DNA of 51,515 nucleotides from a virus (taxonomy: Duplodnaviria > Heunggongvirae > Uroviricota > Caudoviricetes): IMG/VR virus record IMGVR_UViG_2681813321_000027, one strand, 5' to 3'. The notes under the pieces were generated by a model. That model had not been told where the DNA came from. It did no database searches and saw nothing but the letters and a program-made list of their open reading frames with translations. Numbering within the stretch: position 1 is the stretch's first letter; every line of letters begins with the position of its first letter. Positions 9,983 through 36,657 of this stretch are shown here, piece after piece. A program made the position numbers and the translations under genes.

Positions 9983-9984
9983 GT

Positions 9985-14821: not shown

Positions 14822-14897
14822 AGCGCGCATAAAACAGGCAAAAACGGGATTTCAGAATCCCGTAAACGATTAATTAATCAACATAAGGAAAAGCGAC

Positions 14898-15857: not shown

Positions 15858-15861
15858 ACCA

Positions 15862-16173: not shown

Positions 16174-16236
16174 CACAACATCAGGGCGCATCCGCCCTGA
16201 TGACTTTAACCCGGGAGCATAAACAAGGGGGACACA

Positions 16237-16973: not shown

Positions 16974-17458
16974 GTAAAACGCCCTCCTCCAGGGCGTTTA
17001 TTTCAATGCACAATAGTGCACAAATTTGCACAATTTTTTTGAACGACTGTTTACCCTTCCAGCCCGTATAGCGGCTGGATCCGTCAAGGATCCGTGCGTG
17101 CACAAAAAAACGCGCTTTTTCTGCGCGCAGGTGACGGGGGAACAGCCCGCGTTTCAGGGGGTAAATAGCATTCCCTGAACGATGTCGCAGAGACACAACA
17201 GAATGGCTGTATTTCTCACTCTGAGCGTGAAAAATACGTGAGGGATTCTGATTTGATGGGGTGAAAGGTAAGGCCGTCAAAATCGCACTGAGGCGGCGAA
17301 GAACATGCAGTCAACGCGGTGGGATTGCGTAAGAGTCTGACTGTCGATGATGGCAATCAGCAGGAAAGCGTCGTGAAATTATCTGACTGATACAGGAGCT
17401 GGAGAGTCGGGGCATAAATTTTTTATGCCCCGGCGAAGCAGCAGACAAGCGAAGCGCG

Positions 17459-18505
17459 TCAGGATGTGGGCTGGGTGTCTAACAGTGCGTAAGGGTTAAA
17501 GCGGATCACCTCTTCGCCAAGCCAGTCATTGATGTGCTTCATGGCCTCCATGACGGGCATCAGCTCGTTAATTGCGTAAACCCGCGCGGCCTTCTCCACA
17601 TCACCAAACGCACTTTTTTCACCCGGCATCGCCCCCATAAGTTGCGGCGGAACGCGGTGCGCAGCCAGCACATCATCACGGGATGCCGCCTTAACATTCA
17701 TGAACTCATCCTTTGCGGTGATCTGCTGGAACGGCAAAATTTGCACCCCCTCTTTGCCCCCGTTGGGCGCATGAATGAGCACGTTTTTAAACGCACCGCC
17801 ACCACGTGCACCCTGTAGCGTTTCTTTCAGGGAGTCCATGCTTTCGCGGTTTACCTGCGCTGCACCGATGTAGATGATGCACCCGGCGTGGGATCCGTTG
17901 TCGTAATACAGTTTTCTGAACATGTCCGCCGAATGAGACAGGCTGGCCGAGAGTAATGCGCCGAGATATTCCGGCATGCCGTAGATTTCCTGGTTAATGT
18001 CAGGATTCATCAGGTGGCACACTTTGCCAGGGCGAAACTGGAACGCATCCTTGCCATCCTGCACATACCACCATGATTCAAGATCGCTACCGCGTCGCAT
18101 GTATTTCGCCAGGGCGTGCCGTAATTTAAGCGGTTCGCCGAGCATATTGCTTCGAAGCTCAAGGAATGCGTTACCGAACACAAACCAGTCCAGCGCCAGC
18201 GCCGAGAAATCCTGCCGGGAAAGCAGCGGGTGCGGGATGTAGCAACCGAGTAATACATTGCGCTTAAAGTAAAGCGCAGACTGATGCCAGGACGTTTGCC
18301 GGGCAGCTCTTGCCAGACCGTACCAGTCCACCGGGGTTTCATACCACCGCCCGTTATCAGCACAGTACATATTGTCCAGCAGGTCATGCCCGGTCAGGCG
18401 ATAAGGACCATCAAATGTGAATGCACTGAGCGACGATTCTTTCCTGAGCGCATCAGCGAGATCAATGCGTGAACTCATGCGCACTTTTTTATTTTTTCTG
18501 CTCAT
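17459..18505 (-). CDS. Q: portal gpQ, copy 2
   Basis: identical protein. Confidence 0.85.
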   Translation of the reverse strand: MSRKNKKVRMSSRIDLADALRKESSLSAFTFDGPYRLTGHDLLDNMYCADNGRWYETPVDWYGLARAARQTSWHQSALYFKRNVLLGCYIPHPLLSRQDFSALALDWFVFGNAFLELRSNMLGEPLKLRHALAKYMRRGSDLESWWYVQDGKDAFQFRPGKVCHLMNPDINQEIYGMPEYLGALLSASLSHSADMFRKLYYDNGSHAGCIIYIGAAQVNRESMDSLKETLQGARGGGAFKNVLIHAPNGGKEGVQILPFQQITAKDEFMNVKAASRDDVLAAHRVPPQLMGAMPGEKSAFGDVEKAARVYAINELMPVMEAMKHINDWLGEEVIRFNPYALLDTQPTS

Positions 18506-20256
18506 CAGAACTCCATAACCGTGAAACGCTCGTTTTCTCCTTCGCCGCCAATCGGTTCGTTAATGACAGCAAGCATGGTTGCCCACGCAAGGTCGCCGTG
18601 GCTGATCCCCCTCGCGCGGTCCGTTTCGTAAGTGATAAAGCCGCCCGGTGTTTTCACCTTACGCACGGCGTTAAAGGCCGCGACCAGCTCGCGTTCGGCG
18701 CGATCGTATTCCCACCGCCCGGCACGCATTATTTGCAGCATTTTCAGTACCAGCGACCGTTTTGATGACAGCGTGAAGGTGTACGGAATAGCAGCAGGGA
18801 AAAACCGTTTCACTATCTGATAAACAGCCTCCCCGTTCCCGCCCGTCACATCAATGCCGATGTGTTCCACGTTGTAGCGATACGTGAACTCTTCAATGAC
18901 TCTGGCCTGTTCTTCAAACTCCAGCCCCTGAACGCGTCTCGTCTCCACCGTTCGAAAACGGCCACCAGGAACAGCCGGAGGAACCACCACGGACACAGCG
19001 CCGCTGTCGCCGTTGCCACTGCTGCCGTTTGCGTCATACCCAATCCATACCGGACGATTCCCCATCGGGCGGGGAGCAAAAGGTTTCCAGTCTTTCCAGT
19101 CGTCGTATCCGTCAACACCGCAGCCAATCAGGATATTCAGGTTAAATGCCGATTCCCCTTCGCGGACAAACTCACACATATAGAGATTGAGGAACTCGTC
19201 TTCGGTGTTTTCATCACGAATTTCGTCGATATCGGTGTGTTTCCAGCCGTGATTAACCACATCTTCCAGCGTGACAATTTGCCGCCACGTCCGGTCAGGG
19301 CAGATAAGCCCGTTATGCAGCGTTTTCCAGTCCACAGAAAAACGCTGGCGTTTATGCGAGGCCTTTTTCTCGTTCCAGCGGTCGCCGTTCCAGTAGGCGT
19401 ATGCCTCGTGCGTTTCGGTGGATGGCGTGGAGAAGTAGGTGCGTCGCAGCCCGCTGAGGGTTGCCATAGCGCCAGCCACCTTGCGCAGTTCAGCAAAGCG
19501 ACTGACCCAGAAAAATTCATCAAAATAAAAATTGCCCGTATAGGACTGTGCCGTCGCAGCAGAAGTACCGAGAAAATGCAGTTCTGCGCCGTTGGAGAGG
19601 ATGATTTTATCGCCCCCTTTCAGCTCCACATCAACTTCAGCCGCGGCCTTCTGAATAATGCTTTTAAACTGGAACGCCTGACGACGCGACGCAGACAAAA
19701 AAATCTGGTTACGCTGGTAAGGTTGTGCCACATCGTCACGCAGCGCCATCAGCAGTGCTTCCTGTGCAAAATACCAGGTCGCCCCAATCTGTCGGGATTT
19801 CAGGATCATCCTGTTACGTATCCCGGCTTCACTGCAAAGGGTCAGGGAGTCAAACCAGCCCCGCTGATGCCACTCCAGCCTGCTGATGATTTTTTCCCGC
19901 AGTGCGGCAATCTGTTCCGGCGTGAAATGATTTTTGAGTTTTTTCGCCCGGCCTTTCTTTCCTGCGGCCGTCACATCCGGCTGGCCATCATGCAGCTTTT
20001 TAAGCTGCCGGGTCAGCAGGTCTATTTCCTTAAAGTCACCACCTGTTTTATTCTGTTTTTCAGTAAGCTGGATGAGACGCGCATCGATGGACTGCGTGAC
20101 ACGCTGCACGGGTGGCGTTTCATCCCACTGGTCGCGTTTTTTCCACGCATAAATCGTGTTCGGGTTTATTCCCATCAGACGTGATATTTCTGCGGGCGGA
20201 TAACCCTGCCAGTAAAGTTGTCGCGCACGCTGGCGTACAAAAGCGTCCTGAATCAT
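18505..20256 (-). CDS. P: terminase ATPase subunit gpP (full length, 583 aa)
   Basis: large conserved ORF divergent from O, overlapping Q start. Confidence 0.85.
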   Translation of the reverse strand: MIQDAFVRQRARQLYWQGYPPAEISRLMGINPNTIYAWKKRDQWDETPPVQRVTQSIDARLIQLTEKQNKTGGDFKEIDLLTRQLKKLHDGQPDVTAAGKKGRAKKLKNHFTPEQIAALREKIISRLEWHQRGWFDSLTLCSEAGIRNRMILKSRQIGATWYFAQEALLMALRDDVAQPYQRNQIFLSASRRQAFQFKSIIQKAAAEVDVELKGGDKIILSNGAELHFLGTSAATAQSYTGNFYFDEFFWVSRFAELRKVAGAMATLSGLRRTYFSTPSTETHEAYAYWNGDRWNEKKASHKRQRFSVDWKTLHNGLICPDRTWRQIVTLEDVVNHGWKHTDIDEIRDENTEDEFLNLYMCEFVREGESAFNLNILIGCGVDGYDDWKDWKPFAPRPMGNRPVWIGYDANGSSGNGDSGAVSVVVPPAVPGGRFRTVETRRVQGLEFEEQARVIEEFTYRYNVEHIGIDVTGGNGEAVYQIVKRFFPAAIPYTFTLSSKRSLVLKMLQIMRAGRWEYDRAERELVAAFNAVRKVKTPGGFITYETDRARGISHGDLAWATMLAVINEPIGGEGENERFTVMEF

Positions 20257-20410
20257 TGCTCCCCCTGAGTAATTACAGGAAGATTACCCGCGCGCGAAAC
20301 CGTTCTCCTTAACCCCCTGTTCTGGCCGTTTTCTTACAACAAAAGCCCTTTGTATCAGCCTGTTACGCTTTGCCATCATGACTGAAGAACCAGTCAGAGG
20401 GGCAAAAACT
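20257..20410. promoter_or_regulatory. divergent late promoter region (P leftward, O rightward)
   Basis: 154-bp gap between divergent P and O; TGT...ACA dyad candidates; copies at 28773-28926 and 36658-36811. Confidence 0.4.
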
Positions 20411-21247
20411 ATGGCTAATGAAAAAAAGACATCCCGCAAAAAGTTTCGCGTGGCTGTCTCCGGATTAACTGTTGATGGACGTGAAATCAGCCCGGTACAT
20501 CTGCGTGAAGCCGCCGAGAACTTCAACCCGGATGTTTACGCTGCCCGCGTGAACGTTGAGCACTATCTCTCGCCATGCCCGTCAAGCGAATTTTCCGCAA
20601 TGGGCGATGTCACCGCGCTGAGTACGGAAGATATTACGGAAGGCCCGCTGGCCGGACGTACTGCGCTGTATGCAGAAATCGAACCGACCGAGCGCATGAA
20701 GCAGCTTGTCGCTGACGGCAAGAAAATCTATTCCAGTATCGAACTGCACCCGCAGTTCTCCGTTAACGGGCGCGCCTATCTGGTCGGGCTGGCGATGACC
20801 GACACCCCGGCAAGCCTGGGCACTGAGCGCCTGAAATTCACGGCACAGCAGCGTCAGGCGGTGATGACGTTCAACAGTATCCAGGGTGAAGCACCGCTTA
20901 TCTCCGAAGCCATCGAGTCTGAAATCATCGAAATGGCAGAACAACGCCAGGAAGAAGGCACCCAGTGGTTTAACCGCGTAATGGGAATTATTGGTCGTGG
21001 CCGCAAAGCGGATGACGCCAGTTTCTCCCGTATTCAGGAAGCGGTGGAAGGCGTCGCAACGTCACAGGCCGACATTATCGACCGTTTTAATGTGCTGGAA
21101 ACCCGCCATCAGCAGGACCGCCAGAAAATCACGTCACTGACCACAGAGCTGACAGCACTGAAGGAAAAACTGCGCACGCAGGACAGCGATCCGCAGAACC
21201 GCTTCACCGCAACGGGCGCAGCCTCCGACCAGCTGGCTGACTTCTGA
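20411..21247 (+). CDS. O: capsid scaffold protein (P2 gpO family)
   Basis: 278 aa from ATG 20411; YLVGLAMTDTPASLGTE matches P2 gpO as recalled. Confidence 0.85.
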   Translation: MANEKKTSRKKFRVAVSGLTVDGREISPVHLREAAENFNPDVYAARVNVEHYLSPCPSSEFSAMGDVTALSTEDITEGPLAGRTALYAEIEPTERMKQLVADGKKIYSSIELHPQFSVNGRAYLVGLAMTDTPASLGTERLKFTAQQRQAVMTFNSIQGEAPLISEAIESEIIEMAEQRQEEGTQWFNRVMGIIGRGRKADDASFSRIQEAVEGVATSQADIIDRFNVLETRHQQDRQKITSLTTELTALKEKLRTQDSDPQNRFTATGAASDQLADF

Positions 21248-21270
21248 TAAGACAAAGGAGCAAATTTTTT

Positions 21271-22323
21271 ATGAATCTGGTGATGTCAGATATTACCCGC
21301 AACAAGCTGGGTTGCTATATGGCGCAGCAGGCGTCGCTTAACAATATCCCGGTTTCCGCACTGGTATCGCGATTTACCGTGGAACCCTCGGTACAGCAGC
21401 GTTTTGAAAACGCCTCAAAGGAAAGCACCGAATTTACAAAAAGAATTAACGTGATCGGCGTGACCGACCAGAAAGGCGAAAAAATCCTCCTGGACACCAC
21501 CGGGCCAATTGCACGCACGAATACCAGTTATGACGGCACAAAACGCCGTAACCCGAATAACGTGGTTGATCTGAAAAACCGCAAATACCAGTGCGAACAG
21601 GTGAACTACGACACGTTTATTTCATATCCGCAGCTTGATGCCTGGGCGGCACATCCTGATTTTCAGTCCCGCATCAGCGCACAGATTGCCCGACAGGTGG
21701 CGCTTGACCGCATCATGATCGGTTTCAACGGCACGTCTCACGCGGATGAGTCCAACTTCAGCACCAACAAGCTGCTTCAGGACGTTAACGTGGGCTGGCT
21801 GGAGCACATCAGAACCGACGCCAGCGAGCGCGTTATGAATGACGTAACGCTGACCTCCCGCAACATGGACAACACCGTGGCGCACGCGGGTAAGTATGCG
21901 AACGCTGATGCACTGGTACAGGACGCACGCTCATCCCTGCTGGATGAATGGCACAAGGAAGCTGACGACCTCGTGGTGATTATGGGGCGCAACCTGTTTA
22001 ACTCGCTGCGTCTGCCCGTGCTGAACAGTATCAGCGGCCAGAATCCCAATGCGGAATTACTTGCCGGGCAGCTCATCCTGTCATCGCGCACCATTGGCGG
22101 GCTGGGCGTGTTCCTTGCGCCGTTCTTCCCGGATGCAACGATGCTGATCACCTCGTTCAACAACCTGTCGATTTACTGGCAGAAAGGTTCAATGCGTCGT
22201 CTGATGAAAGACGAACCGGAATACAACCGCATCGCCACCTACCAGTCCATCAATGACGCTTATGTCGTTGAAGACTATGGCAAGTGCGCGATGGTCACTG
22301 GCCTGAAGTTCGCCGACAGCTAA
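21271..22323 (+). CDS. N: major capsid protein (P2 gpN family)
   Basis: 350 aa; aaggag RBS; FTVEPSV, IMIGFNG, NLSIYW and YVVEDY motifs match P2 gpN. Confidence 0.9.
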   Translation: MNLVMSDITRNKLGCYMAQQASLNNIPVSALVSRFTVEPSVQQRFENASKESTEFTKRINVIGVTDQKGEKILLDTTGPIARTNTSYDGTKRRNPNNVVDLKNRKYQCEQVNYDTFISYPQLDAWAAHPDFQSRISAQIARQVALDRIMIGFNGTSHADESNFSTNKLLQDVNVGWLEHIRTDASERVMNDVTLTSRNMDNTVAHAGKYANADALVQDARSSLLDEWHKEADDLVVIMGRNLFNSLRLPVLNSISGQNPNAELLAGQLILSSRTIGGLGVFLAPFFPDATMLITSFNNLSIYWQKGSMRRLMKDEPEYNRIATYQSINDAYVVEDYGKCAMVTGLKFADS

Positions 22324-22368
22324 TCAACTCACGGCGGGCATCATGCCCGCCTGTAACGGAGAGAAAAA

Positions 22369-22559
22369 ATGATTACTCCTGCACAGCAACACTGGCAGAA
22401 CGTGATGGCACAGCGCGCAGGCCGGGCGAATGAAGGCGTGGACCACGCCGCGCGTACCGCGCATGAAGAGGTGCTGTATCGTCTGCGTCTGGCACAGGCC
22501 CGGCTTAAGGGCGTACAGGCCAGAAGCGCGAAAGCCGCCATCAAAAAAGAGTTATTGCC
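22369..22559 (+). pseudogene. M: terminase small subunit gpM, first 63 codons only (fused to A at J2)
   Basis: identical to start of full M at 38770; track ORF 22369-23337 is an M::A chimera. Confidence 0.8.
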
Positions 22560-22561
22560 AG
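22559..22561. other. junction J2: M / orphan A / internal A (= 7054)
   Basis: ...gagttattgcc + a + ggcaataactgtcccc... Confidence 0.85.
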
Positions 22562-23337
22562 GCAATAACTGTCCCCGTGTACAGGAAACGGACGACAACG
22601 GGACAGAACAGCCGGAAGAACGGCCAGCACCGTGGCCGCAGCTCCCTGACGGCGTTGAAGTGAACGAATGGATGCGCTCACTGAAACGGCACGAACGCCG
22701 GGCGCTGATGCGTTCGCTTCGTGACAAACAGGCAAAAAACAGCAGTGATGAAATGCAGAGCTGGACACAGAGCCGCAAACAGCAGCGGCCTTTGCCTGAT
22801 AACCACGAATTACTCGCTAAAGAATGGCGGGAGTCTGCTGAATCTCTCGGCCTGCATATCGGTGAACAGCAGATGCAGCACCTGTTACGGGGCGGCAGCC
22901 TGTACGTTGACGGCAGCATCATTGCACCGCAGGGATTTGAAATTGTACGCAAACCGGATACCCGACCGGACAGCCGGATCACGCAGCTCTGGCAGCGCCT
23001 GAGCCGTAACCACGGCGTAAGCAGTACGGAGATCCGCCATAACCCGGTCGCCAGCTATCTGGAACAGCTGGGGGCATCAGACCCCGAAGCCGCCGCACGC
23101 CTGGCATCCACACTTCAGCAGGACCAGAACACCATGAAAACACCCGTTACCGTGCTTTCTGACATGCTGCGCGCCATCCGCGACGCAGAGCACGCACAGA
23201 GAATCAGTGAAACCACTGAACGCGCCCGCCGCAAAGCAGACCTGCTGCGGGGTAGCCTGACCAGTGGAAACAAAAAACAGACAGAAAAGGGATTCACAAA
23301 TCCCGTAAATGAGCAAAAAACGCGCCGCGATATATGA
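22561..23337 (+). pseudogene. A: 3' fragment of A (last about 258 codons)
   Basis: identical to 7054-7830. Confidence 0.8.
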
Positions 23338-23413
23338 AGCGCGCATAAAACAGGCAAAAACGGGATTTCAGAATCCCGTAAACGATTAATTAATCAACAT
23401 AAGGAAAAGCGAC

Positions 23414-24373
23414 ATGAAAATTTGTATCGATGACGGCTCCACCAACATCAAGCTGGCATGGACTGAGAAGGGCGAACGCCGCAACGCCATCAGCCCAAAC
23501 AGCTTCAAGTCGGAATGGTCTGCGCCGTTCGGTGGCACGCAGCCCGCGAACTACATGCTTGATGGCGTGCGCTATGGTTTTGATCCGGTCAGCGATCGCT
23601 TTGTCCAGACGACCGACACGCAATACCAGTACAGCGATGTGAATGTCATTGCCATTCATCACGCGCTGGTCAAATCAGGCATCACACCACAGGAAGTGGA
23701 TGTGGTTGTCACCCTGCCACTGAGCGAATATTTCGACACAAACGCACAGCCGGACATGGCCAACATCAATCGCAAAAAAGCAAACGTCATGCGCCCGGTG
23801 GCGTACCAGAACGGAAAAGCATTCACTATCCGTAACGTACGGGTTATGCCTGAATCCATTCCGGCTGGTTTTAAAGCACTGGCTGACATGAGTCCGTTTG
23901 AATCCCTGCTGATTGTGGATTTAGGCGGAACCACGCTGGATGTGGCAAAGGTTCAGGGACAACTGGCAGGTATCAGCCAGGTGTTTTGCGATCCACACGT
24001 AGGCGTTTCCCTGATGGCCGATGCCGTACTGTCGGTGATGGCCACTAACGGTATGCGTACCAGTCACCACATCGCCAATACCATTATCGAACATCGCCAT
24101 GATGAAGCCTGGCTGCGCCAGCACATCCACAATGACGCGCATTACGCCAGCCTGATGGCGGTTATTCGTGAAAAGGAAGAAACACTGAAACAACGCGTGT
24201 TCCGCGCGCTGGCGGGTTTTTCGGGTTACGGGCGGGTGATGGTTGTCGGTGGCGGGGCGGAGATTGTGGCACCCGCTATCCGCGAAGCCTGCGGAGTTAA
24301 TGCGACTTTCATCGCGGACGGGGTGCCACAGTTTGCTCTGGTTAATGGGCTGTACGCAATGGACAAGGAGTAA
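23414..24373 (+). CDS. parM: ParM-like ATPase, copy 3
   Basis: offset +15507. Confidence 0.8.
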   Translation: MKICIDDGSTNIKLAWTEKGERRNAISPNSFKSEWSAPFGGTQPANYMLDGVRYGFDPVSDRFVQTTDTQYQYSDVNVIAIHHALVKSGITPQEVDVVVTLPLSEYFDTNAQPDMANINRKKANVMRPVAYQNGKAFTIRNVRVMPESIPAGFKALADMSPFESLLIVDLGGTTLDVAKVQGQLAGISQVFCDPHVGVSLMADAVLSVMATNGMRTSHHIANTIIEHRHDEAWLRQHIHNDAHYASLMAVIREKEETLKQRVFRALAGFSGYGRVMVVGGGAEIVAPAIREACGVNATFIADGVPQFALVNGLYAMDKE

Positions 24374-24377
24374 ACCA

Positions 24378-24689
24378 ATGACGACACCAACCAGACGGAT
24401 AAGTTTCTATCTGAAGCCCGCCGCCGTCAAGAACGAAGGCGAAGCATGCGCCTGGCTGGACAGCCTTACACCAGAAGCCCGCAAAAGTGGTCAACGCGTG
24501 GCTTTTCTGGCCGGGCTGGCACTACTGAAAATGAATCCGGCAGAGGCTTACCGACTGGCTGCATGGGCTGATGATGAGGCGTTATCAGTGACACAAACCA
24601 GGACAGAACGCCCCGCGTCACAGCCAGTACCAACCGCACAGATAACCAGTCAGATGGCCGGAAATATCCGGGCGTTATTTCCCGAATAA
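24378..24689 (+). CDS. parR: ParR-like, copy 3
   Basis: offset +15507. Confidence 0.5.
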   Translation: MTTPTRRISFYLKPAAVKNEGEACAWLDSLTPEARKSGQRVAFLAGLALLKMNPAEAYRLAAWADDEALSVTQTRTERPASQPVPTAQITSQMAGNIRALFPE

Positions 24690-24752
24690 CACAACATCAG
24701 GGCGCATCCGCCCTGATGACTTTAACCCGGGAGCATAAACAAGGGGGACACA

Positions 24753-25085
24753 ATGCAATACATTGACAGAGAAAAAGCGCAGCGACTGATTGAGCGGATG
24801 GAAGCGCTGGCGAAAGAAGAAAATGTCAACATCCAAAAAATAGCTGAATGTGGCCAGATAGTTCTTCGTCGTGAAAAAGACCTCAAACAACTGATGTCTG
24901 GCGAAACCAGCAAAACATGGACTTCAGGCGAGAAGACGGTTTATTGCAGTTTCTGCAATAAATCCCAGTACGAAGTCACAAAGGTGATTGCCGGACCGTC
25001 TGTTTACATCTGCAATGAGTGTGTGGATTTGTGCAATGAAATTATCAGGAAAGAAGTGACAGACAAAAAGGAAAAAAACGCATGA
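24753..25085 (+). CDS. ClpX ZBD homolog, copy 3
   Basis: offset +15507. Confidence 0.7.
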
Positions 25086-25489
25086 ACAGAAAACAGAAAC
25101 AAGAGTTGAAATACTTCTTACGTAAAGAAATTGCCAGGCTTGAAGATGCAGAGTCACAATCATCAGAAATTCCGTTCGGAATGGATATCAACGACGCCCG
25201 TATGCTTCAGGCATACCGTATAGCTCAGGCTGCACTACAGACAAAACCGTTAAATAACATACATGAAAAGTATGATTATTTTACGGATACCGCTTGCTTG
25301 CTGACATCTGAAGAACAAAAGATAGCCCAACTTTTAGGCGACGCATGGAACCTGTATTTAACATTGCCAGTTGAGCATCCAATGGGTAGAGATGAATTTT
25401 GCCGGGCAATTCATCATTGCCAAAATATGGTGTTGGCACGCCCGGCCATCAGGGCGCTGGCCAGGAAGGGGCAAGGCTATAAAAGATAA
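25082..25489 (+). CDS. hypothetical 135-aa protein, copy 3
   Basis: offset +15507. Confidence 0.5.
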
Positions 25490-25974
25490 GTAAAACGCCC
25501 TCCTCCAGGGCGTTTATTTCAATGCACAATAGTGCACAAATTTGCACAATTTTTTTGAACGACTGTTTACCCTTCCAGCCCGTATAGCGGCTGGATCCGT
25601 CAAGGATCCGTGCGTGCACAAAAAAACGCGCTTTTTCTGCGCGCAGGTGACGGGGGAACAGCCCGCGTTTCAGGGGGTAAATAGCATTCCCTGAACGATG
25701 TCGCAGAGACACAACAGAATGGCTGTATTTCTCACTCTGAGCGTGAAAAATACGTGAGGGATTCTGATTTGATGGGGTGAAAGGTAAGGCCGTCAAAATC
25801 GCACTGAGGCGGCGAAGAACATGCAGTCAACGCGGTGGGATTGCGTAAGAGTCTGACCGCCGATGATGGCAATAAGCAGAAAAGCGTCGTGAAATTATCT
25901 GATTGATACAGGAGCTGGAGAGCCGGGGCATAAATTTTTTATGCCCCGGCGAAGCAGCAGACAAGCGAAGCGCG

Positions 25975-27021
25975 TCAGGATGTGGGCTGGGTATCTAACA
26001 GTGCGTAAGGGTTAAAGCGGATCACCTCTTCGCCAAGCCAGTCATTGATGTGCTTCATGGCCTCCATGACGGGCATCAGCTCGTTAATTGCGTAAACCCG
26101 CGCGGCCTTCTCCACATCACCAAACGCACTTTTTTCACCCGGCATCGCCCCCATAAGTTGCGGCGGAACGCGGTGCGCAGCCAGCACATCATCACGGGAT
26201 GCCGCCTTAACATTCATGAACTCATCCTTTGCGGTGATCTGCTGGAACGGCAAAATTTGCACCCCCTCTTTGCCCCCGTTGGGCGCATGAATGAGCACGT
26301 TTTTAAATGCACCACCACCACGCGCACCCTGTAACGTTTCTTTCAGGGAGTCCATGCTTTCGCGGTTTACCTGCGCTGCACCGATGTAGATGATGCACCC
26401 GGCGTGGGATCCGTTGTCGTAGTACAGTTTTCTGAACATGTCCGCCGAATGAGAAAGGCTGGCCGAGAGTAATGCGCCAAGATATTCCGGCATGCCGTAG
26501 ATTTCCTGGTTAATATCCGGATTCATCAGGTGGCACACTTTGCCAGGGCGAAACTGGAACGCGTCCTTGCCATCCTGCACATACCACCATGATTCAAGAT
26601 CGCTTCCGCGTCGCATGTATTTCGCCAGGGCGTGCCGTAATTTAAGCGGTTCGCCGAGCATATTGCTTCGAAGCTCAAGGAATGCGTTACCGAACACAAA
26701 CCAGTCCAGCGCCAGCGCCGAGAAATCCTGCCGGGAAAGCAGCGGGTGCGGGATGTAGCAACCGAGTAATACATTGCGCTTAAAGTAAAGCGCAGACTGA
26801 TGCCAGGACGTTTGCCGGGCAGCTCTTGCCAGACCGTACCAGTCCACCGGGGTTTCATACCACCGCCCGTTATCAGCACAGTACATATTGTCCAGCAGGT
26901 CATGCCCGGTCAGGCGATAAGGACCATCAAATGTGAATGCACTGAGCGACGATTCTTTCCTGAGCGCATCAGCGAGATCAATGCGTGAACTCATGCGCAC
27001 TTTTTTATTTTTTCTGCTCAT
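25975..27021 (-). CDS. Q: portal gpQ, copy 3 (synonymous variant allele)
   Basis: protein identical to other copies but at least 4 silent differences at 26290-26330. Confidence 0.85.
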   Translation of the reverse strand: MSRKNKKVRMSSRIDLADALRKESSLSAFTFDGPYRLTGHDLLDNMYCADNGRWYETPVDWYGLARAARQTSWHQSALYFKRNVLLGCYIPHPLLSRQDFSALALDWFVFGNAFLELRSNMLGEPLKLRHALAKYMRRGSDLESWWYVQDGKDAFQFRPGKVCHLMNPDINQEIYGMPEYLGALLSASLSHSADMFRKLYYDNGSHAGCIIYIGAAQVNRESMDSLKETLQGARGGGAFKNVLIHAPNGGKEGVQILPFQQITAKDEFMNVKAASRDDVLAAHRVPPQLMGAMPGEKSAFGDVEKAARVYAINELMPVMEAMKHINDWLGEEVIRFNPYALLDTQPTS

Positions 27022-28772: not shown

Positions 28773-28926
28773 TGCTCCCCCTGAGTAATTACAGGAAGAT
28801 TACCCGCGCGCGAAACCGTTCTCCTTAACCCCCTGTTCTGGCCGTTTTCTTACAACAAAAGCCCTTTGTATCAGCCTGTTACGCTTTGCCATCATGACTG
28901 AAGAACCAGTCAGAGGGGCAAAAACT

Positions 28927-29763
28927 ATGGCTAATGAAAAAAAGACATCCCGCAAAAAGTTTCGCGTGGCTGTCTCCGGATTAACTGTTGATGGACGTGA
29001 AATCAGCCCGGTACATCTGCGTGAAGCCGCCGAGAACTTCAACCCGGATGTTTACGCTGCCCGCGTGAACGTTGAGCACTATCTCTCGCCATGCCCGTCA
29101 AGCGAATTTTCCGCAATGGGCGATGTCACCGCGCTGAGTACGGAAGATATTACGGAAGGCCCGCTGGCCGGACGTACTGCGCTGTATGCAGAAATCGAAC
29201 CGACCGAGCGCATGAAGCAGCTTGTCGCTGACGGCAAGAAAATCTATTCCAGTATCGAACTGCACCCGCAGTTCTCCGTTAACGGGCGCGCCTATCTGGT
29301 CGGGCTGGCGATGACCGACACCCCGGCAAGCCTGGGCACTGAGCGCCTGAAATTCACGGCACAGCAGCGTCAGGCGGTGATGACGTTCAACAGTATCCAG
29401 GGTGAAGCACCGCTTATCTCCGAAGCCATCGAGTCTGAAATCATCGAAATGGCAGAACAACGCCAGGAAGAAGGCACCCAGTGGTTTAACCGCGTAATGG
29501 GAATTATTGGTCGTGGCCGCAAAGCGGATGACGCCAGTTTCTCCCGTATTCAGGAAGCGGTGGAAGGCGTCGCAACGTCACAGGCCGACATTATCGACCG
29601 TTTTAATGTGCTGGAAACCCGCCATCAGCAGGACCGCCAGAAAATCACGTCACTGACCACAGAGCTGACAGCACTGAAGGAAAAACTGCGCACGCAGGAC
29701 AGCGATCCGCAGAACCGCTTCACCGCAACGGGCGCAGCCTCCGACCAGCTGGCTGACTTCTGA
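28927..29763 (+). CDS. O: scaffold gpO, copy 2
   Basis: identical. Confidence 0.85.
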   Translation: MANEKKTSRKKFRVAVSGLTVDGREISPVHLREAAENFNPDVYAARVNVEHYLSPCPSSEFSAMGDVTALSTEDITEGPLAGRTALYAEIEPTERMKQLVADGKKIYSSIELHPQFSVNGRAYLVGLAMTDTPASLGTERLKFTAQQRQAVMTFNSIQGEAPLISEAIESEIIEMAEQRQEEGTQWFNRVMGIIGRGRKADDASFSRIQEAVEGVATSQADIIDRFNVLETRHQQDRQKITSLTTELTALKEKLRTQDSDPQNRFTATGAASDQLADF

Positions 29764-29786
29764 TAAGACAAAGGAGCAAATTTTTT

Positions 29787-30839
29787 ATGAATCTGGTGAT
29801 GTCAGATATTACCCGCAACAAGCTGGGTTGCTATATGGCGCAGCAGGCGTCGCTTAACAATATCCCGGTTTCCGCACTGGTATCGCGATTTACCGTGGAA
29901 CCCTCGGTACAGCAGCGTTTTGAAAACGCCTCAAAGGAAAGCACCGAATTTACAAAAAGAATTAACGTGATCGGCGTGACCGACCAGAAAGGCGAAAAAA
30001 TCCTCCTGGACACCACCGGGCCAATTGCACGCACGAATACCAGTTATGACGGCACAAAACGCCGTAACCCGAATAACGTGGTTGATCTGAAAAACCGCAA
30101 ATACCAGTGCGAACAGGTGAACTACGACACGTTTATTTCATATCCGCAGCTTGATGCCTGGGCGGCACATCCTGATTTTCAGTCCCGCATCAGCGCACAG
30201 ATTGCCCGACAGGTGGCGCTTGACCGCATCATGATCGGTTTCAACGGCACGTCTCACGCGGATGAGTCCAACTTCAGCACCAACAAGCTGCTTCAGGACG
30301 TTAACGTGGGCTGGCTGGAGCACATCAGAACCGACGCCAGCGAGCGCGTTATGAATGACGTAACGCTGACCTCCCGCAACATGGACAACACCGTGGCGCA
30401 CGCGGGTAAGTATGCGAACGCTGATGCACTGGTACAGGACGCACGCTCATCCCTGCTGGATGAATGGCACAAGGAAGCTGACGACCTCGTGGTGATTATG
30501 GGGCGCAACCTGTTTAACTCGCTGCGTCTGCCCGTGCTGAACAGTATCAGCGGCCAGAATCCCAATGCGGAATTACTTGCCGGGCAGCTCATCCTGTCAT
30601 CGCGCACCATTGGCGGGCTGGGCGTGTTCCTTGCGCCGTTCTTCCCGGATGCAACGATGCTGATCACCTCGTTCAACAACCTGTCGATTTACTGGCAGAA
30701 AGGTTCAATGCGTCGTCTGATGAAAGACGAACCGGAATACAACCGCATCGCCACCTACCAGTCCATCAATGACGCTTATGTCGTTGAAGACTATGGCAAG
30801 TGCGCGATGGTCACTGGCCTGAAGTTCGCCGACAGCTAA
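29787..30839 (+). CDS. N: major capsid gpN, copy 2
   Basis: identical. Confidence 0.9.
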   Translation: MNLVMSDITRNKLGCYMAQQASLNNIPVSALVSRFTVEPSVQQRFENASKESTEFTKRINVIGVTDQKGEKILLDTTGPIARTNTSYDGTKRRNPNNVVDLKNRKYQCEQVNYDTFISYPQLDAWAAHPDFQSRISAQIARQVALDRIMIGFNGTSHADESNFSTNKLLQDVNVGWLEHIRTDASERVMNDVTLTSRNMDNTVAHAGKYANADALVQDARSSLLDEWHKEADDLVVIMGRNLFNSLRLPVLNSISGQNPNAELLAGQLILSSRTIGGLGVFLAPFFPDATMLITSFNNLSIYWQKGSMRRLMKDEPEYNRIATYQSINDAYVVEDYGKCAMVTGLKFADS

Positions 30840-30884
30840 TCAACTCACGGCGGGCATCATGCCCGCCTGTAACGGAGAGAAAAA

Positions 30885-31267
30885 ATGATTACTCCTGCAC
30901 AGCAACACTGGCAGAACGTGATGGCACAGCGCGCAGGCCGGGCGAATGAAGGCGTGGACCACGCCGCGCGTACCGCGCATGAAGAGGTGCTGTATCGTCT
31001 GCGTCTGGCACAGGCCCGGCTTAAGGGCGTACAGGCCAGAAGCGCGAAAGCCGCCATCAAAAAAGAGTTATTGCCGGACTTTTCCGGCTGGATTGAGGGA
31101 ACGCTGGAGGCTGACGGCGGGCAGCAGGATGAAGTGATTGCCACGCTGATGGTGTGGGCGATTGACTGCGGCGATCTTCCGCTGGCGCTGCGTATTGGTG
31201 CATATGTGGTCCGTCACAACCTCATCATGCCGGATAACTTTGGCCGTACTGCTGCCACGGTACTGAC
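30885..31267 (+). pseudogene. M: terminase small subunit gpM, truncated after about 127 codons at J3
   Basis: track ORF ends 31274 in junction-derived sequence. Confidence 0.8.
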
Positions 31268-31269
31268 AG
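31267..31269. other. junction J3: M / orphan A / parM upstream (= 7877)
   Basis: ...ggtactgac + a + gattaattaatcaacataagg...; breakpoint lies just 3' of palindromic repeat 2. Confidence 0.85.
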
Positions 31270-31298
31270 ATTAATTAATCAACATAAGGAAAAGCGAC

Positions 31299-32258
31299 AT
31301 GAAAATTTGTATCGATGACGGCTCCACCAACATCAAGCTGGCATGGACTGAGAAGGGCGAACGCCGCAACGCCATCAGCCCAAACAGCTTCAAGTCGGAA
31401 TGGTCTGCGCCGTTCGGTGGCACGCAGCCCGCGAACTACATGCTTGATGGCGTGCGCTATGGTTTTGATCCGGTCAGCGATCGCTTTGTCCAGACGACCG
31501 ACACGCAATACCAGTACAGCGATGTGAATGTCATTGCCATTCATCACGCGCTGGTCAAATCAGGCATCACACCACAGGAAGTGGATGTGGTTGTCACCCT
31601 GCCACTGAGCGAATATTTCGACACAAACGCACAGCCGGACATGGCCAACATCAATCGCAAAAAAGCAAACGTCATGCGCCCGGTGGCGTACCAGAACGGA
31701 AAAGCATTCACTATCCGTAACGTACGGGTTATGCCTGAATCCATTCCGGCTGGTTTTAAAGCACTGGCTGACATGAGTCCGTTTGAATCCCTGCTGATTG
31801 TGGATTTAGGCGGAACCACGCTGGATGTGGCAAAGGTTCAGGGACAACTGGCAGGTATCAGCCAGGTGTTTTGCGATCCACACGTAGGCGTTTCCCTGAT
31901 GGCCGATGCCGTACTGTCGGTGATGGCCACTAACGGTATGCGTACCAGTCACCACATCGCCAATACCATTATCGAACATCGCCATGATGAAGCCTGGCTG
32001 CGCCAGCACATCCACAATGACGCGCATTACGCCAGCCTGATGGCGGTTATTCGTGAAAAGGAAGAAACACTGAAACAACGCGTGTTCCGCGCGCTGGCGG
32101 GTTTTTCGGGTTACGGGCGGGTGATGGTTGTCGGTGGCGGGGCGGAGATTGTGGCACCCGCTATCCGCGAAGCCTGCGGAGTTAATGCGACTTTCATCGC
32201 GGACGGGGTGCCACAGTTTGCTCTGGTTAATGGGCTGTACGCAATGGACAAGGAGTAA
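31299..32258 (+). CDS. parM: ParM-like ATPase, copy 4 (no upstream repeats)
   Basis: offset +23392. Confidence 0.8.
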   Translation: MKICIDDGSTNIKLAWTEKGERRNAISPNSFKSEWSAPFGGTQPANYMLDGVRYGFDPVSDRFVQTTDTQYQYSDVNVIAIHHALVKSGITPQEVDVVVTLPLSEYFDTNAQPDMANINRKKANVMRPVAYQNGKAFTIRNVRVMPESIPAGFKALADMSPFESLLIVDLGGTTLDVAKVQGQLAGISQVFCDPHVGVSLMADAVLSVMATNGMRTSHHIANTIIEHRHDEAWLRQHIHNDAHYASLMAVIREKEETLKQRVFRALAGFSGYGRVMVVGGGAEIVAPAIREACGVNATFIADGVPQFALVNGLYAMDKE

Positions 32259-32262
32259 ACCA

Positions 32263-32574
32263 ATGACGACACCAACCAGACGGATAAGTTTCTATCTGAA
32301 GCCCGCCGCCGTCAAGAACGAAGGCGAAGCATGCGCCTGGCTGGACAGCCTTACACCAGAAGCCCGCAAAAGTGGTCAACGCGTGGCTTTTCTGGCCGGG
32401 CTGGCACTACTGAAAATGAATCCGGCAGAGGCTTACCGACTGGCTGCATGGGCTGATGATGAGGCGTTATCAGTGACACAAACCAGGACAGAACGCCCCG
32501 CGTCACAGCCAGTACCAACCGCACAGATAACCAGTCAGATGGCCGGAAATATCCGGGCGTTATTTCCCGAATAA
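32263..32574 (+). CDS. parR: ParR-like, copy 4
   Basis: offset +23392. Confidence 0.5.
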   Translation: MTTPTRRISFYLKPAAVKNEGEACAWLDSLTPEARKSGQRVAFLAGLALLKMNPAEAYRLAAWADDEALSVTQTRTERPASQPVPTAQITSQMAGNIRALFPE

Positions 32575-32637
32575 CACAACATCAGGGCGCATCCGCCCTG
32601 ATGACTTTAACCCGGGAGCATAAACAAGGGGGACACA

Positions 32638-32970
32638 ATGCAATACATTGACAGAGAAAAAGCGCAGCGACTGATTGAGCGGATGGAAGCGCTGGCGAAA
32701 GAAGAAAATGTCAACATCCAAAAAATAGCTGAATGTGGCCAGATAGTTCTTCGTCGTGAAAAAGACCTCAAACAACTGATGTCTGGCGAAACCAGCAAAA
32801 CATGGACTTCAGGCGAGAAGACGGTTTATTGCAGTTTCTGCAATAAATCCCAGTACGAAGTCACAAAGGTGATTGCCGGACCGTCTGTTTACATCTGCAA
32901 TGAGTGTGTGGATTTGTGCAATGAAATTATCAGGAAAGAAGTGACAGACAAAAAGGAAAAAAACGCATGA
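32638..32970 (+). CDS. ClpX ZBD homolog, copy 4
   Basis: offset +23392. Confidence 0.7.
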
Positions 32971-33374
32971 ACAGAAAACAGAAACAAGAGTTGAAATACT
33001 TCTTACGTAAAGAAATTGCCAGGCTTGAAGATGCAGAGTCACAATCATCAGAAATTCCGTTCGGAATGGATATCAACGACGCCCGTATGCTTCAGGCATA
33101 CCGTATAGCTCAGGCTGCACTACAGACAAAACCGTTAAATAACATACATGAAAAGTATGATTATTTTACGGATACCGCTTGCTTGCTGACATCTGAAGAA
33201 CAAAAGATAGCCCAACTTTTAGGCGACGCATGGAACCTGTATTTAACATTGCCAGTTGAGCATCCAATGGGTAGAGATGAATTTTGCCGGGCAATTCATC
33301 ATTGCCAAAATATGGTGTTGGCACGCCCGGCCATCAGGGCGCTGGCCAGGAAGGGGCAAGGCTATAAAAGATAA
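32967..33374 (+). CDS. hypothetical 135-aa protein, copy 4
   Basis: offset +23392. Confidence 0.5.
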
Positions 33375-33859
33375 GTAAAACGCCCTCCTCCAGGGCGTTT
33401 ATTTCAATGCACAATAGTGCACAAATTTGCACAATTTTTTTGAACGACTGTTTACCCTTCCAGCCCGTATAGCGGCTGGATCCGTCAAGGATCCGTGCGT
33501 GCACAAAAAAACGCGCTTTTTCTGCGCGCAGGTGACGGGGGAACAGCCCGCGTTTCAGGGGGTAAATAGCATTCCCTGAACGATGTCGCAGAGACACAAC
33601 AGAATGGCTGTATTTCTCACTCTGAGCGTGAAAAATACGTGAGGGATTCTGATTTGATGGGGTGAAAGGTAAGGCCGTCAAAATCGCACTGAGGCGGCGA
33701 AGAACATGCAGTCAACGCGGTGGGATTGCGTAAGAGTCTGACCGCCGATGATGGCAATAAGCAGAAAAGCGTCGTGAAATTATCTGATTGATACAGGAGC
33801 TGGAGAGCCGGGGCATAAATTTTTTATGCCCCGGCGAAGCAGCAGACAAGCGAAGCGCG

Positions 33860-34906
33860 TCAGGATGTGGGCTGGGTATCTAACAGTGCGTAAGGGTTAA
33901 AGCGGATCACCTCTTCGCCAAGCCAGTCATTGATGTGCTTCATGGCCTCCATGACGGGCATCAGCTCGTTAATTGCGTAAACCCGCGCGGCCTTCTCCAC
34001 ATCACCAAACGCACTTTTTTCACCCGGCATCGCCCCCATAAGTTGCGGCGGAACGCGGTGCGCAGCCAGCACATCATCACGGGATGCCGCCTTAACATTC
34101 ATGAACTCATCCTTTGCGGTGATCTGCTGGAACGGCAAAATTTGCACCCCCTCTTTGCCCCCGTTGGGCGCATGAATGAGCACGTTTTTAAACGCACCGC
34201 CACCACGTGCACCCTGTAGCGTTTCTTTCAGGGAGTCCATGCTTTCGCGGTTTACCTGCGCTGCACCGATGTAGATGATGCACCCGGCGTGGGATCCGTT
34301 GTCGTAATACAGTTTTCTGAACATGTCCGCCGAATGAGACAGGCTGGCCGAGAGTAATGCGCCGAGATATTCCGGCATGCCGTAGATTTCCTGGTTAATG
34401 TCAGGATTCATCAGGTGGCACACTTTGCCAGGGCGAAACTGGAACGCATCCTTGCCATCCTGCACATACCACCATGATTCAAGATCGCTACCGCGTCGCA
34501 TGTATTTCGCCAGGGCGTGCCGTAATTTAAGCGGTTCGCCGAGCATATTGCTTCGAAGCTCAAGGAATGCGTTACCGAACACAAACCAGTCCAGCGCCAG
34601 CGCCGAGAAATCCTGCCGGGAAAGCAGCGGGTGCGGGATGTAGCAACCGAGTAATACATTGCGCTTAAAGTAAAGCGCAGACTGATGCCAGGACGTTTGC
34701 CGGGCAGCTCTTGCCAGACCGTACCAGTCCACCGGGGTTTCATACCACCGCCCGTTATCAGCACAGTACATATTGTCCAGCAGGTCATGCCCGGTCAGGC
34801 GATAAGGACCATCAAATGTGAATGCACTGAGCGACGATTCTTTCCTGAGCGCATCAGCGAGATCAATGCGTGAACTCATGCGCACTTTTTTATTTTTTCT
34901 GCTCAT
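33860..34906 (-). CDS. Q: portal gpQ, copy 4
   Basis: identical protein. Confidence 0.85.
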   Translation of the reverse strand: MSRKNKKVRMSSRIDLADALRKESSLSAFTFDGPYRLTGHDLLDNMYCADNGRWYETPVDWYGLARAARQTSWHQSALYFKRNVLLGCYIPHPLLSRQDFSALALDWFVFGNAFLELRSNMLGEPLKLRHALAKYMRRGSDLESWWYVQDGKDAFQFRPGKVCHLMNPDINQEIYGMPEYLGALLSASLSHSADMFRKLYYDNGSHAGCIIYIGAAQVNRESMDSLKETLQGARGGGAFKNVLIHAPNGGKEGVQILPFQQITAKDEFMNVKAASRDDVLAAHRVPPQLMGAMPGEKSAFGDVEKAARVYAINELMPVMEAMKHINDWLGEEVIRFNPYALLDTQPTS

Positions 34907-36657
34907 CAGAACTCCATAACCGTGAAACGCTCGTTTTCTCCTTCGCCGCCAATCGGTTCGTTAATGACAGCAAGCATGGTTGCCCACGCAAGGTCGCCGT
35001 GGCTGATCCCCCTCGCGCGGTCCGTTTCGTAAGTGATAAAGCCGCCCGGTGTTTTCACCTTACGCACGGCGTTAAAGGCCGCGACCAGCTCGCGTTCGGC
35101 GCGATCGTATTCCCACCGCCCGGCACGCATTATTTGCAGCATTTTCAGTACCAGCGACCGTTTTGATGACAGCGTGAAGGTGTACGGAATAGCAGCAGGG
35201 AAAAACCGTTTCACTATCTGATAAACAGCCTCCCCGTTCCCGCCCGTCACATCAATGCCGATGTGTTCCACGTTGTAGCGATACGTGAACTCTTCAATGA
35301 CTCTGGCCTGTTCTTCAAACTCCAGCCCCTGAACGCGTCTCGTCTCCACCGTTCGAAAACGGCCACCAGGAACAGCCGGAGGAACCACCACGGACACAGC
35401 GCCGCTGTCGCCGTTGCCACTGCTGCCGTTTGCGTCATACCCAATCCATACCGGACGATTCCCCATCGGGCGGGGAGCAAAAGGTTTCCAGTCTTTCCAG
35501 TCGTCGTATCCGTCAACACCGCAGCCAATCAGGATATTCAGGTTAAATGCCGATTCCCCTTCGCGGACAAACTCACACATATAGAGATTGAGGAACTCGT
35601 CTTCGGTGTTTTCATCACGAATTTCGTCGATATCGGTGTGTTTCCAGCCGTGATTAACCACATCTTCCAGCGTGACAATTTGCCGCCACGTCCGGTCAGG
35701 GCAGATAAGCCCGTTATGCAGCGTTTTCCAGTCCACAGAAAAACGCTGGCGTTTATGCGAGGCCTTTTTCTCGTTCCAGCGGTCGCCGTTCCAGTAGGCG
35801 TATGCCTCGTGCGTTTCGGTGGATGGCGTGGAGAAGTAGGTGCGCCGCAGTCCGCTGAGGGTTGCCATAGCGCCAGCCACCTTGCGCAGTTCAGCAAAGC
35901 GACTGACCCAGAAAAATTCATCAAAATAAAAATTGCCCGTGTAGGACTGTGCCGTCGCAGCAGAAGTACCAAGAAAATGCAGCTCTGCGCCGTTGGAGAG
36001 GATGATTTTATCGCCCCCTTTCAGCTCCACATCAACTTCAGCCGCAGCCTTCTGAATAATGCTTTTAAACTGGAACGCCTGACGACGCGACGCAGACAAA
36101 AAAATCTGGTTACGCTGGTAAGGTTGTGCCACATCGTCACGCAGCGCCATCAGCAGTGCTTCCTGTGCAAAATACCAGGTCGCCCCAATCTGTCGGGATT
36201 TCAGGATCATCCTGTTACGTATCCCGGCTTCACTGCAAAGGGTCAGGGAGTCAAACCAGCCCCGCTGATGCCACTCCAGCCTGCTGATGATTTTTTCCCG
36301 CAGTGCGGCAATCTGTTCCGGCGTGAAATGATTTTTGAGTTTTTTCGCCCGGCCTTTCTTTCCTGCGGCCATCACATCCGGCTGGCCATCATGCAGCTTT
36401 TTAAGCTGCCGGGTCAGCAGGTCTATTTCCTTGAAGTCACCACCTGTTTTATTCTGTTTTTCAGTAAGCTGGATGAGGCGCGCATCGATGGACTGCGTGA
36501 CACGCTGCACGGGTGGCGTTTCATCCCACTGGTCGCGTTTTTTCCACGCATAAATCGTGTTCGGGTTTATTCCCATCAGACGTGATATTTCTGCGGGCGG
36601 ATAACCCTGCCAGTAAAGTTGTCGCGCACGCTGGCGTACAAAAGCGTCCTGAATCAT
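34906..36657 (-). CDS. P: terminase ATPase gpP, copy 4 (variant allele)
   Basis: one aa change (T to M in DVxAAGKK) plus several silent changes between about 35540 and 36480. Confidence 0.85.
   Translation of the reverse strand: MIQDAFVRQRARQLYWQGYPPAEISRLMGINPNTIYAWKKRDQWDETPPVQRVTQSIDARLIQLTEKQNKTGGDFKEIDLLTRQLKKLHDGQPDVMAAGKKGRAKKLKNHFTPEQIAALREKIISRLEWHQRGWFDSLTLCSEAGIRNRMILKSRQIGATWYFAQEALLMALRDDVAQPYQRNQIFLSASRRQAFQFKSIIQKAAAEVDVELKGGDKIILSNGAELHFLGTSAATAQSYTGNFYFDEFFWVSRFAELRKVAGAMATLSGLRRTYFSTPSTETHEAYAYWNGDRWNEKKASHKRQRFSVDWKTLHNGLICPDRTWRQIVTLEDVVNHGWKHTDIDEIRDENTEDEFLNLYMCEFVREGESAFNLNILIGCGVDGYDDWKDWKPFAPRPMGNRPVWIGYDANGSSGNGDSGAVSVVVPPAVPGGRFRTVETRRVQGLEFEEQARVIEEFTYRYNVEHIGIDVTGGNGEAVYQIVKRFFPAAIPYTFTLSSKRSLVLKMLQIMRAGRWEYDRAERELVAAFNAVRKVKTPGGFITYETDRARGISHGDLAWATMLAVINEPIGGEGENERFTVMEF

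Follow-up and report, generated by a model that had tools for sequence, protein, structure and literature searches.

Apparent repeats in a P88/P2-like Escherichia coli prophage sequence: a probable stack of redundant contigs carrying natural, mostly synonymous alleles

The analyses presented here indicate that the repeated arrangement of this viral sequence is an ordinary assembly artefact and not a real feature, and that the minority alleles distinguishing its copies are natural. We assign a probability of roughly 0.85 to this combined reading. The window, that is, the whole stretch of DNA analysed (51,515 nt; positions carry the prefix w), corresponded to 229410-280924 of the WGS contig CYBF01000001.1 (GCA_001285025.1) and constituted the last 51.5 kb of that contig. 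Self-BLAST and a position-by-position comparison revealed that it was made up of five collinear segments, S1 to S5, all on the plus strand, which we located in deduplicated coordinates, defined as positions in the prophage sequence with the stacked overlaps written once (~24 kb, 23.9 kb). This sequence joins w1-13229, w20221-22559, w31076-31267, w39153-46658 and w50884-51515. S1 (contig 1, w1-13229) carried int, the early genes, the replication gene A, the ParM/StbB cargo, Q, and P without its first 12 codons. S2 (w13231-22559, deduplicated 6240-15568) began within gene A and stopped within M, the small terminase gene, and S3 occupied w22561-31267 (deduplicated 7054-15760). S4 (w31269-46658, deduplicated 7877-23266) started at the ParM cargo, took in Q, P, O, N and M together with the lysis and baseplate genes, and broke off midway through H, while S5 (w46660-51515, deduplicated 19043-23898) contained the baseplate genes V, W, J and I followed by a full-length H (w49366-51000) and reached the contig end. 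In this layout the A-to-M region was written four times and the baseplate/H region twice, with self-overlaps of 4-7 kb between segments left unmerged. The copies were 99.73-99.93% identical and aligned without gaps, differing by substitutions only and showing no indels. Every segment began upstream of the point at which the preceding one ended, and both the starts (1, 6240, 7054, 7877 and 19043) and the ends (13229, 15568, 15760, 23266 and at least 23898) ascended as in a tiling path. The whole stack presented only one left end, on the int side, and one right end.

Comparison of the window with the deposited CYBF01000001.1 sequence showed mismatches only at w13230, w22560, w31268 and w46659, where the record reads N and the window reads A. 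These positions were the four joints between segments: J1 (w13230) connected deduplicated position 13229 to 6240, J2 (w22560) 15568 to 7054, J3 (w31268) 15760 to 7877, and J4 (w46659) 23266 to 19043. Since every joint is an N in the record, no junction was sequenced and the repetition is an assembly-level duplication in which overlapping contigs were concatenated. The initial annotation had discarded an in-silico duplication; this held for the differences, which are not random in-silico mutations, but not for the copies themselves. The joint base matched neither flank at any of the four joints (at J1, for instance, it was neither the next base of P nor the one that precedes the restart point in gene A), and a search for microhomology or direct repeats at all four found none. 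The A in place of N arose during preparation of the window. Explanations of this A as an A-tailing/ligation chimera, or as a 2-bit encoding of N as A by the assembler, were rejected because the record itself reads N. As a separate observation, the flanks of J2 formed a perfect 10-nt inverted repeat (AGTTATTGCC / GGCAATAACT), whose origin is unexplained.

Further support came from a sibling assembly of the same batch, GCA_001285125.1, in which the prophage was single-copy across this region. The deduplicated 23.9 kb aligned to the sibling prophage without gaps and with 99.95% identity, and at each of the 27 multi-copy sites the sibling had the majority allele. Its contig CYAN01000002.1 had a single-N joint of its own, after which came a 5.7 kb duplicate that showed zero mismatches beyond the joint, indicating that the artefact belongs to the pipeline. 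Apart from its short tract or tracts, each copy in the window reproduced the haplotype of the sibling, hereafter X, and S1 agreed with X at every variable site.

The differences between the copies were concentrated in a few short tracts of 83-634 nt. Tract 1, private to S2 (w17342-17477), comprised seven substitutions, six of them in non-coding sequence past the Q stop codon, between Q and the cargo, and one in a synonymous Q codon (D343). This region had been described as a differing copy of the cos region; the difference was real, while the cos label was unsupported, as the P2 cos 19-mer had no match in the window with up to 3 mismatches allowed. Tract 2, private to S3 (w26308-26605, minus strand), was separated from tract 1 by 315 nt and consisted of 11 substitutions in Q (portal), all 11 synonymous; the CTA/TTA, GCA/GCG, GGC/GGT and GCG/GCA codons first noticed in the third Q copy were among them. 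Tract 3, private to S4 (w35845-36478, minus strand), affected P (large terminase) with nine substitutions, eight synonymous plus T96M, in agreement with the single amino-acid change initially reported for the fourth P copy. Tract 4 (w41805-42241, plus strand), which lies outside the coordinates of the original observation, was found in the single-copy part of S4, where the R-like and S-like tail genes departed from the sibling assembly at eight sites (6/8 synonymous). Tract 5 (w45754-45836, plus strand) comprised three sites at which H (tail fibre) of S4 differed from both S5 and the sibling, two synonymous and one E205G; the disagreement noted between the two H copies is thus placed at the pairs w45754/45818/45836 (S4) and w49979/50043/50061 (S5).

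Outside these clusters the copies were 100% identical across 5-9 kb, so that the clustering is far beyond chance. Within a copy, the differences from the other copies lay close together in a single cluster. The synonymous bias noticed at the outset was confirmed: of the 24 coding differences 22 were synonymous, against an expectation of 22-32% for random substitutions (P = 9e-12 with p=0.25; P = 2e-7 with p=0.40). Transitions outnumbered transversions by 26:4. The pN/pS values of Q, P and H were 0, 0.04 and 0.16, respectively, a dN/dS-type result which, together with the synonymous excess, bears out the purifying selection suggested at first sight. This signature is real, yet it comes from the history of the phage population and not from the "repeats".

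Every minority allele was present in independent complete E. coli genomes, confirming the earlier view that they are not sequencing errors. E. coli ATCC 43896 carried 35/35 of the minority alleles of tracts 1-4 and lacked the H alleles, strain 300709 carried 27/27 of those of tracts 1-3, and WS3294A carried 34/38, the three H alleles among them. Exact matches in natural genomes covered 171 nt for tract 1, 331 nt for tract 2 and 201 nt for tract 5, the last including WS3294A. These relatives differed from the window at 416-664 further sites of the late region, none of which was adopted by any copy. Deduplicated positions 10630, 10648, 10759 and 11161 are examples of further Y-type sites, and the Y-type gpO is diverged at 13470-14000. 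The absence of these hundreds of other differences indicates that each copy is X plus a short tract of a second type, Y. Consequently, the proposal that the copies represent distinct phage haplotypes was not supported, as each was haplotype X with an 83-634 nt tract.

Altogether, these results are best accounted for by a draft assembly that would have held redundant, overlapping contigs of one P88/P2-like prophage. A scaffolding or ordering step would then have set five contigs by their start positions and, being unable to merge them, would have left a one-base N gap at each joint; the display of N as A in the window hid these gaps. The sequenced material would also have included reads of another P88-like lineage. 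That lineage, whose late region is of the Y type, is ~96% identical to X and known from E. coli ATCC 43896, 300709 and WS3294A. Most likely these reads came from a second prophage of the same genome, possibly from a mixed culture; we regard a second related prophage in the source genome as likely. The Y tracts, one to each redundant contig, may have entered otherwise X-type contigs in an assembly where a Y-specific part of the graph served as the seed of every redundant contig, which then grew outward into sequence common to both types. We somewhat favour the specific version in which a single co-resident Y-type phage combined with chimeric contigs. X and Y are naturally occurring alleles of portal, terminase and tail genes, which are essential, and this explains why nearly all differences between them are synonymous.

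We only infer which software step was responsible for the stack. Redundant contigs processed by a minimal-gap scaffolder likewise give one-base N joints, position-ordered contigs and unmerged overlaps, and SSPACE puts a single 'n' where contigs are predicted to overlap but the end overlap is not found. The GapFiller paper makes no statement regarding single-N gaps. Contigs with 5-7 kb overlaps are not the usual output of a plain de Bruijn assembler, and overlaps of this length are beyond the reach of a short-insert scaffolder, which implies an extra step of contig extension or repeat resolution. When contig ends were compared with the X/Y polymorphic sites, as expected for de Bruijn branch points, they coincided only at the end of S1, which weakens a simple "graph branch" account. 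In addition, S4 has three Y-type tracts, and one seed per contig fits S2 and S3 better.

Several other explanations were weighed. It is unlikely, though not negligibly so, that the contigs truly represent parts of several real, near-identical prophages or haplotypes (X, X plus tract 1, X plus tract 2, and X plus tracts 3-5) and that only their end-to-end placement is wrong; this corresponds to the initial suggestion of several related haplotypes or prophages. Such a situation would be in line with the natural origin of all the minority alleles and with the existence of fine-scale natural mosaics, partial combinations being found in the natural relatives L008 (5/7 tract-1 alleles) and L010 (5/9 tract-3 alleles). 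The S4-type P protein was also encoded exactly by a metagenome contig, and E. coli genomes contained up to 5 related prophage places. Nevertheless, this explanation requires that a single isolate harbour 3-4 haplotypes that match at 100% across 5-9 kb outside one private tract apiece, whereas two haplotypes and a phase-blind assembly account for the same data. The single left and right ends of the stack also speak against it. Moreover, the redundant 5.7 kb copy of the sibling had zero variation, so redundancy is no evidence for separate copies. We give only a small chance to a polylysogen with X- and Y-type P88-like prophages in which at least some Y tracts arose by recent gene conversion between the two and were present in sub-populations of the culture, each being emitted as its own redundant contig.

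It seems distinctly improbable that the tracts were absent from the reads of the sample and were introduced from a genome with a Y-type prophage by a reference-guided step, whether contig extension, gap filling or padding of the consensus. The order of the segments does resemble a reference-based tiling and the tracts are exact matches to known genomes. However, reference-guided extension tools draw sequence from the reads and not from the bases of the reference. No reference examined had all 38 alleles, as ATCC 43896 lacked those of H and WS3294A lacked four, and in this region the sibling assembly was free of such tracts. There is a precedent in an E. coli pipeline of the same period that used a reference-guided extender after a scaffolder and a gap filler (PMC5343136), although its link to this assembly is unproven. 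The aEPEC/GEMS project (ERP001141) is a candidate origin of the assembly and no more than a lead.

A chromosomal prophage that genuinely carries nested, tandem partial duplications, patched later through gene conversion with a related prophage as donor, would correspond to the literal order of the deposited sequence and could yield different natural tracts in each copy. We consider this very improbable. In addition to the unsequenced junctions, with N at every joint, and to the N-joined duplicate that the same pipeline produced in the sibling, the four joints linked four different position pairs, unlike the amplification of a single unit. They also destroyed P, M (cut twice) and H, generating false fusion and truncated genes in the form of P-A, M-A and H-V chimeras. 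None of the complete E. coli genomes in which matches were found contained a place spanning J1 (0 of 1,380) or J2 (0 of 1,370), and the J1 sequence was absent from IMG/VR. Finally, an origin of the differences in sequencing error, consensus error or random artificial mutation, favoured by nothing other than their low number, was refuted by the synonymous and transition excess (22/24 coding, P <= 2e-7; 26:4), the zero indels, the close clustering and the identity of each allele to one in independent genomes.

The main value of these observations is as a quality flag for CYBF01000001.1 and for one or more sibling assemblies of the same batch, in each of which N-joined redundant stacks occur. In the window, the stack inflates the prophage to 51 kb, compared with ~24 kb once deduplicated, and such stacks are open to being misread as tandem amplification, polylysogeny or concatemers. 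The replacement of N by A erases the sole visible sign of the gaps, and sequence scans should therefore keep or mark the N's.

With respect to the prophage itself, gene order and hallmark proteins identified the window as a P88/P2-like prophage of E. coli. Escherichia phage P88 showed 96.7% nucleotide identity over 92% of a 15.4 kb query; one P88 relative is filed as Xuanwuvirus. The genes followed the P2-type order, with int, cox and A, then Q and P leftward and O, N, M, L, lysis, R, S, V, W, J, I and H rightward, and the Pfam families Phage_portal, Terminase_5/6N/6C, Phage_GPA and Phage_tail_fib were found. A search for defence-system matches among the cargo genes between A and Q returned none, and in relatives the integrase adjoins pdxB. 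The deduplicated element is an ordinary P88-like member, with no biological difference from the group. Mosaicism through homologous recombination is established in P2-like phages, and the X and Y late regions likewise differ mainly at synonymous sites; in contrast to that mosaicism, the tracts described here lie in artefactual copies and are only candidates for real recombinants. Biologically, the data add only a restatement, namely that P2-like late genes form close lineages with mostly silent differences.

Self-comparison ruled out a simple repeat array for the 51.5 kb window and resolved it into five collinear segments (S1-S5), every next one restarting upstream of its predecessor's end. 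Removal of the overlaps gave a deduplicated sequence of 23,898 nt, on which S1 (w1-13229; w, window position) occupies 1-13229, S2 (w13231-22559) 6240-15568, S3 (w22561-31267) 7054-15760, S4 (w31269-46658) 7877-23266 and S5 (w46660-51515) 19043-23898. Along this sequence, segment starts and ends alike increase in order, the pattern of a tiling path. Lookup of the intact P protein traced the window to the last 51,515 bases of the NCBI WGS contig CYBF01000001.1 (GCA_001285025.1; record position = window position + 229,409). When compared over w8505-50521, record and window mismatched at exactly w13230, w22560, w31268 and w46659, the four joints (J1-J4), and all four positions were 'N' in the record and 'A' in the window. 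Each joint is thus a scaffold gap of a single base, across which no junction was ever sequenced, and the 'A' is a replacement of N introduced during window preparation. At all four joints it differs both from the base with which the left segment would normally continue and from the one that precedes the right segment, and no microhomology was found. The joints truncate or fuse the genes P (large terminase), M (small terminase, twice) and H (tail fibre); the N-to-A replacement conceals the gaps and makes fake fusion-ORF codons (e.g. w11514-13331 on the minus strand and w45141-46943). In searches with J1- and J2-spanning queries, about 1,380 and about 1,370 complete E. coli genomes, respectively, matched the two halves, none had them joined, and the J1 sequence was not in IMG/VR. 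At J2, the 10 nt that close S2 (AGTTATTGCC) are the exact reverse complement of the 10 nt that open S3 (GGCAATAACT). This inverted repeat, symmetric about the N (w22550-22570) and with both arms being authentic phage sequence, has a chance expectation of about 5e-6 per random position pair and may hint at the way in which contigs are cut or joined by the pipeline.

The unstacked form of this prophage is present in a sibling assembly from the same accession series, GCA_001285125.1 (CYAN01000002.1), which aligned gap-free to the deduplicated sequence (99.95%) and presented the majority allele at 27/27 sites of the four-fold region. Its tail region has its own single-N joint (position 858 of the locus at 1689-8270 of the record), followed by a 5.7 kb duplicate from the lysis gene to the tail fibre with zero mismatches beyond the joint; the extra copy closes with a different C-terminus of the tail fibre (494 aa, Gp53-like_C, in place of the 544-aa Collar type). 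This mismatch-free, N-joined duplicate indicates that the artefact is pipeline behaviour of this batch, which outputs overlapping contigs joined by single Ns even without sequence variation, and redundancy alone is no evidence for separate copies. The repeat thus arose when a public draft genome was assembled and scaffolded, and the N-to-A substitution in the window kept this artefact from view. The repeat copies hold no novelty, and the worth of the result is that of a data-quality warning.

The 30 differences between copies (joint positions excluded) were all substitutions, with zero indels, and S1 had no private ones. They fell into tract 1 (S2, w17342-17477; seven sites, six non-coding and one synonymous in the portal gene Q), tract 2 (S3, w26308-26605; 11/11 synonymous in Q), tract 3 (S4, w35845-36478; nine sites, eight synonymous plus T96M in P) and tract 5 (S4 versus S5, w45754-45836; three sites, two synonymous plus E205G in H). 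Tract 4 (w41805-42241), with eight sites (6/8 synonymous) in R-like and S-like tail genes of single-copy S4, was visible only against the sibling assembly and lay beyond the coordinates of the initial annotation, whose positions, codons and counts for the copy differences were all correct. The synonymous bias it had described was also borne out: 22/24 coding differences were silent, when 22-32% would be expected under random substitution in these genes (P = 9e-12 to 2e-7), and the dN/dS check it proposed gave pN/pS values of 0 (Q), 0.04 (P) and 0.16 (H). Together with 26 transitions versus 4 transversions, this excess refutes random error as the source of the differences.

The tracts were matched exactly in complete E. 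coli genomes, except for the P tract, which was matched at 99.8-99.9%. Three tract-carrying prophages were aligned. That of ATCC 43896 carried 27/27 minority alleles in tracts 1-3 and 8/8 in tract 4, that of 300709 carried 27/27 in tracts 1-3, and that of WS3294A carried 34 of the 38 minority alleles, including 3/3 in H. The late regions of these relatives, belonging to a second P88-like lineage (Y-type), showed only about 96% identity to the window, and each relative differed from it at 416-664 further sites, some of them between tracts. Because no window copy adopted any of these further sites, each copy is built of the main haplotype, X, with a single unbroken Y-type stretch in it; the stretches span at least 136, 298, 634, 437 and 83 nt for tracts 1-5, respectively. 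The synonymous bias simply reflects how two natural lineages normally differ in essential phage genes. The initial annotation was therefore right in taking the differences as natural alleles and not errors, but its view of the copies as distinct haplotypes and real repeats did not hold, since the joints are Ns and the copies are X with short Y stretches.

Most likely, we infer, the sequenced material held both X-type and Y-type reads, the simplest source being two related prophages in the strain; polylysogeny is frequent for this group (up to 5 places per genome). Each Y-specific piece of the assembly graph would have been extended through shared sequence into a multi-kb contig following the X path elsewhere, so that several overlapping, near-identical contigs arose, every one with a Y tract of its own. 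They would then have been placed by estimated position in a scaffolding or ordering step, which inserted a minimal gap when no end-to-end overlap was found. SSPACE writes a single 'n' between contigs that are predicted to overlap but show no shared ends. A contemporaneous E. coli pipeline combined an assembler with SSPACE, GapFiller and a reference-guided extender (PMC5343136). No paper tied to accession CYBF01000001.1 was found. Three observations sit less neatly with this mechanism: contig ends lie off X/Y polymorphic sites (S1 end excepted), S4 holds three tracts and not one, and the perfect inverted repeat around J2 has no explanation in it. An unlikely reading is that the contigs correctly represent parts of three or four real haplotypes and were merely mis-scaffolded; fine-scale mosaics occur naturally and the S4-type P protein is encoded on a metagenome contig, but two haplotypes and phase-blind assembly are the more parsimonious account. 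Import of the tracts from a reference genome is more doubtful still, as no single relative carries 38/38 alleles. With Ns at the joints, it is highly improbable that a nested tandem duplication really exists.

Under the stack lies a P88-type prophage of the P2 family; 92% of a 15.4 kb query aligned to Escherichia phage P88, at 96.7% identity. Its genes run int, cox, A and a ParM/StbB cargo, then Q and P leftward, followed rightward by O, N, M, L, lysis, R, S, V, W, J, I and H, with Pfam support for portal, large terminase, gpA and tail fibre. The P2 cos 19-mer GGCGAGGCGGGGAAAGCAC was absent from w9990-10470 even at 3 mismatches and the cos site of the P88-like phage was not located; the 'cos region' label initially given to w17330-17470 is putative. 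The cargo between A and Q (w7907-9982, repeated at w14898-16973, w23414-25489 and w31299-33374) encodes ParM/StbA-like (319 aa) and Plasmid_stab_B (103 aa) proteins, a 110-aa protein with a ClpX-type C4 zinc finger and a 135-aa protein without Pfam match; none of the four genes had a PADLOC match. Relatives carry different genes there (DUF4760 plus a 280-aa protein; AAA ATPase plus D12-class methyltransferase, MethyltransfD12; Ead/Ea22; S8 peptidase plus AAA ATPase), and variable content at this position is typical of the P2-like phage variable hotspot. The integrase adjoins pdxB in relatives. In the WS3294A prophage (NZ_CP035819.1), the early region from int to mid-A showed ~99.8% identity to w1-7000 and the late region only 96.3%, a clear example of modular early-late exchange in this group. 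In relatives, the region past the right end of the window (ATCC 43896 locus, 1227-3933; 300709, 22044-24086; WS3294A, 23775-25800) includes a recombinase-family gene, possibly encoding a DNA invertase. The gene adjoins alternative, oppositely oriented genes for the tail fibre and its assembly. This arrangement is suggestive of an invertible segment for host range in the relatives, like Mu G or P1 C, and such a segment is probably why the assembly broke at the end of the contig and formed the H-region stack.
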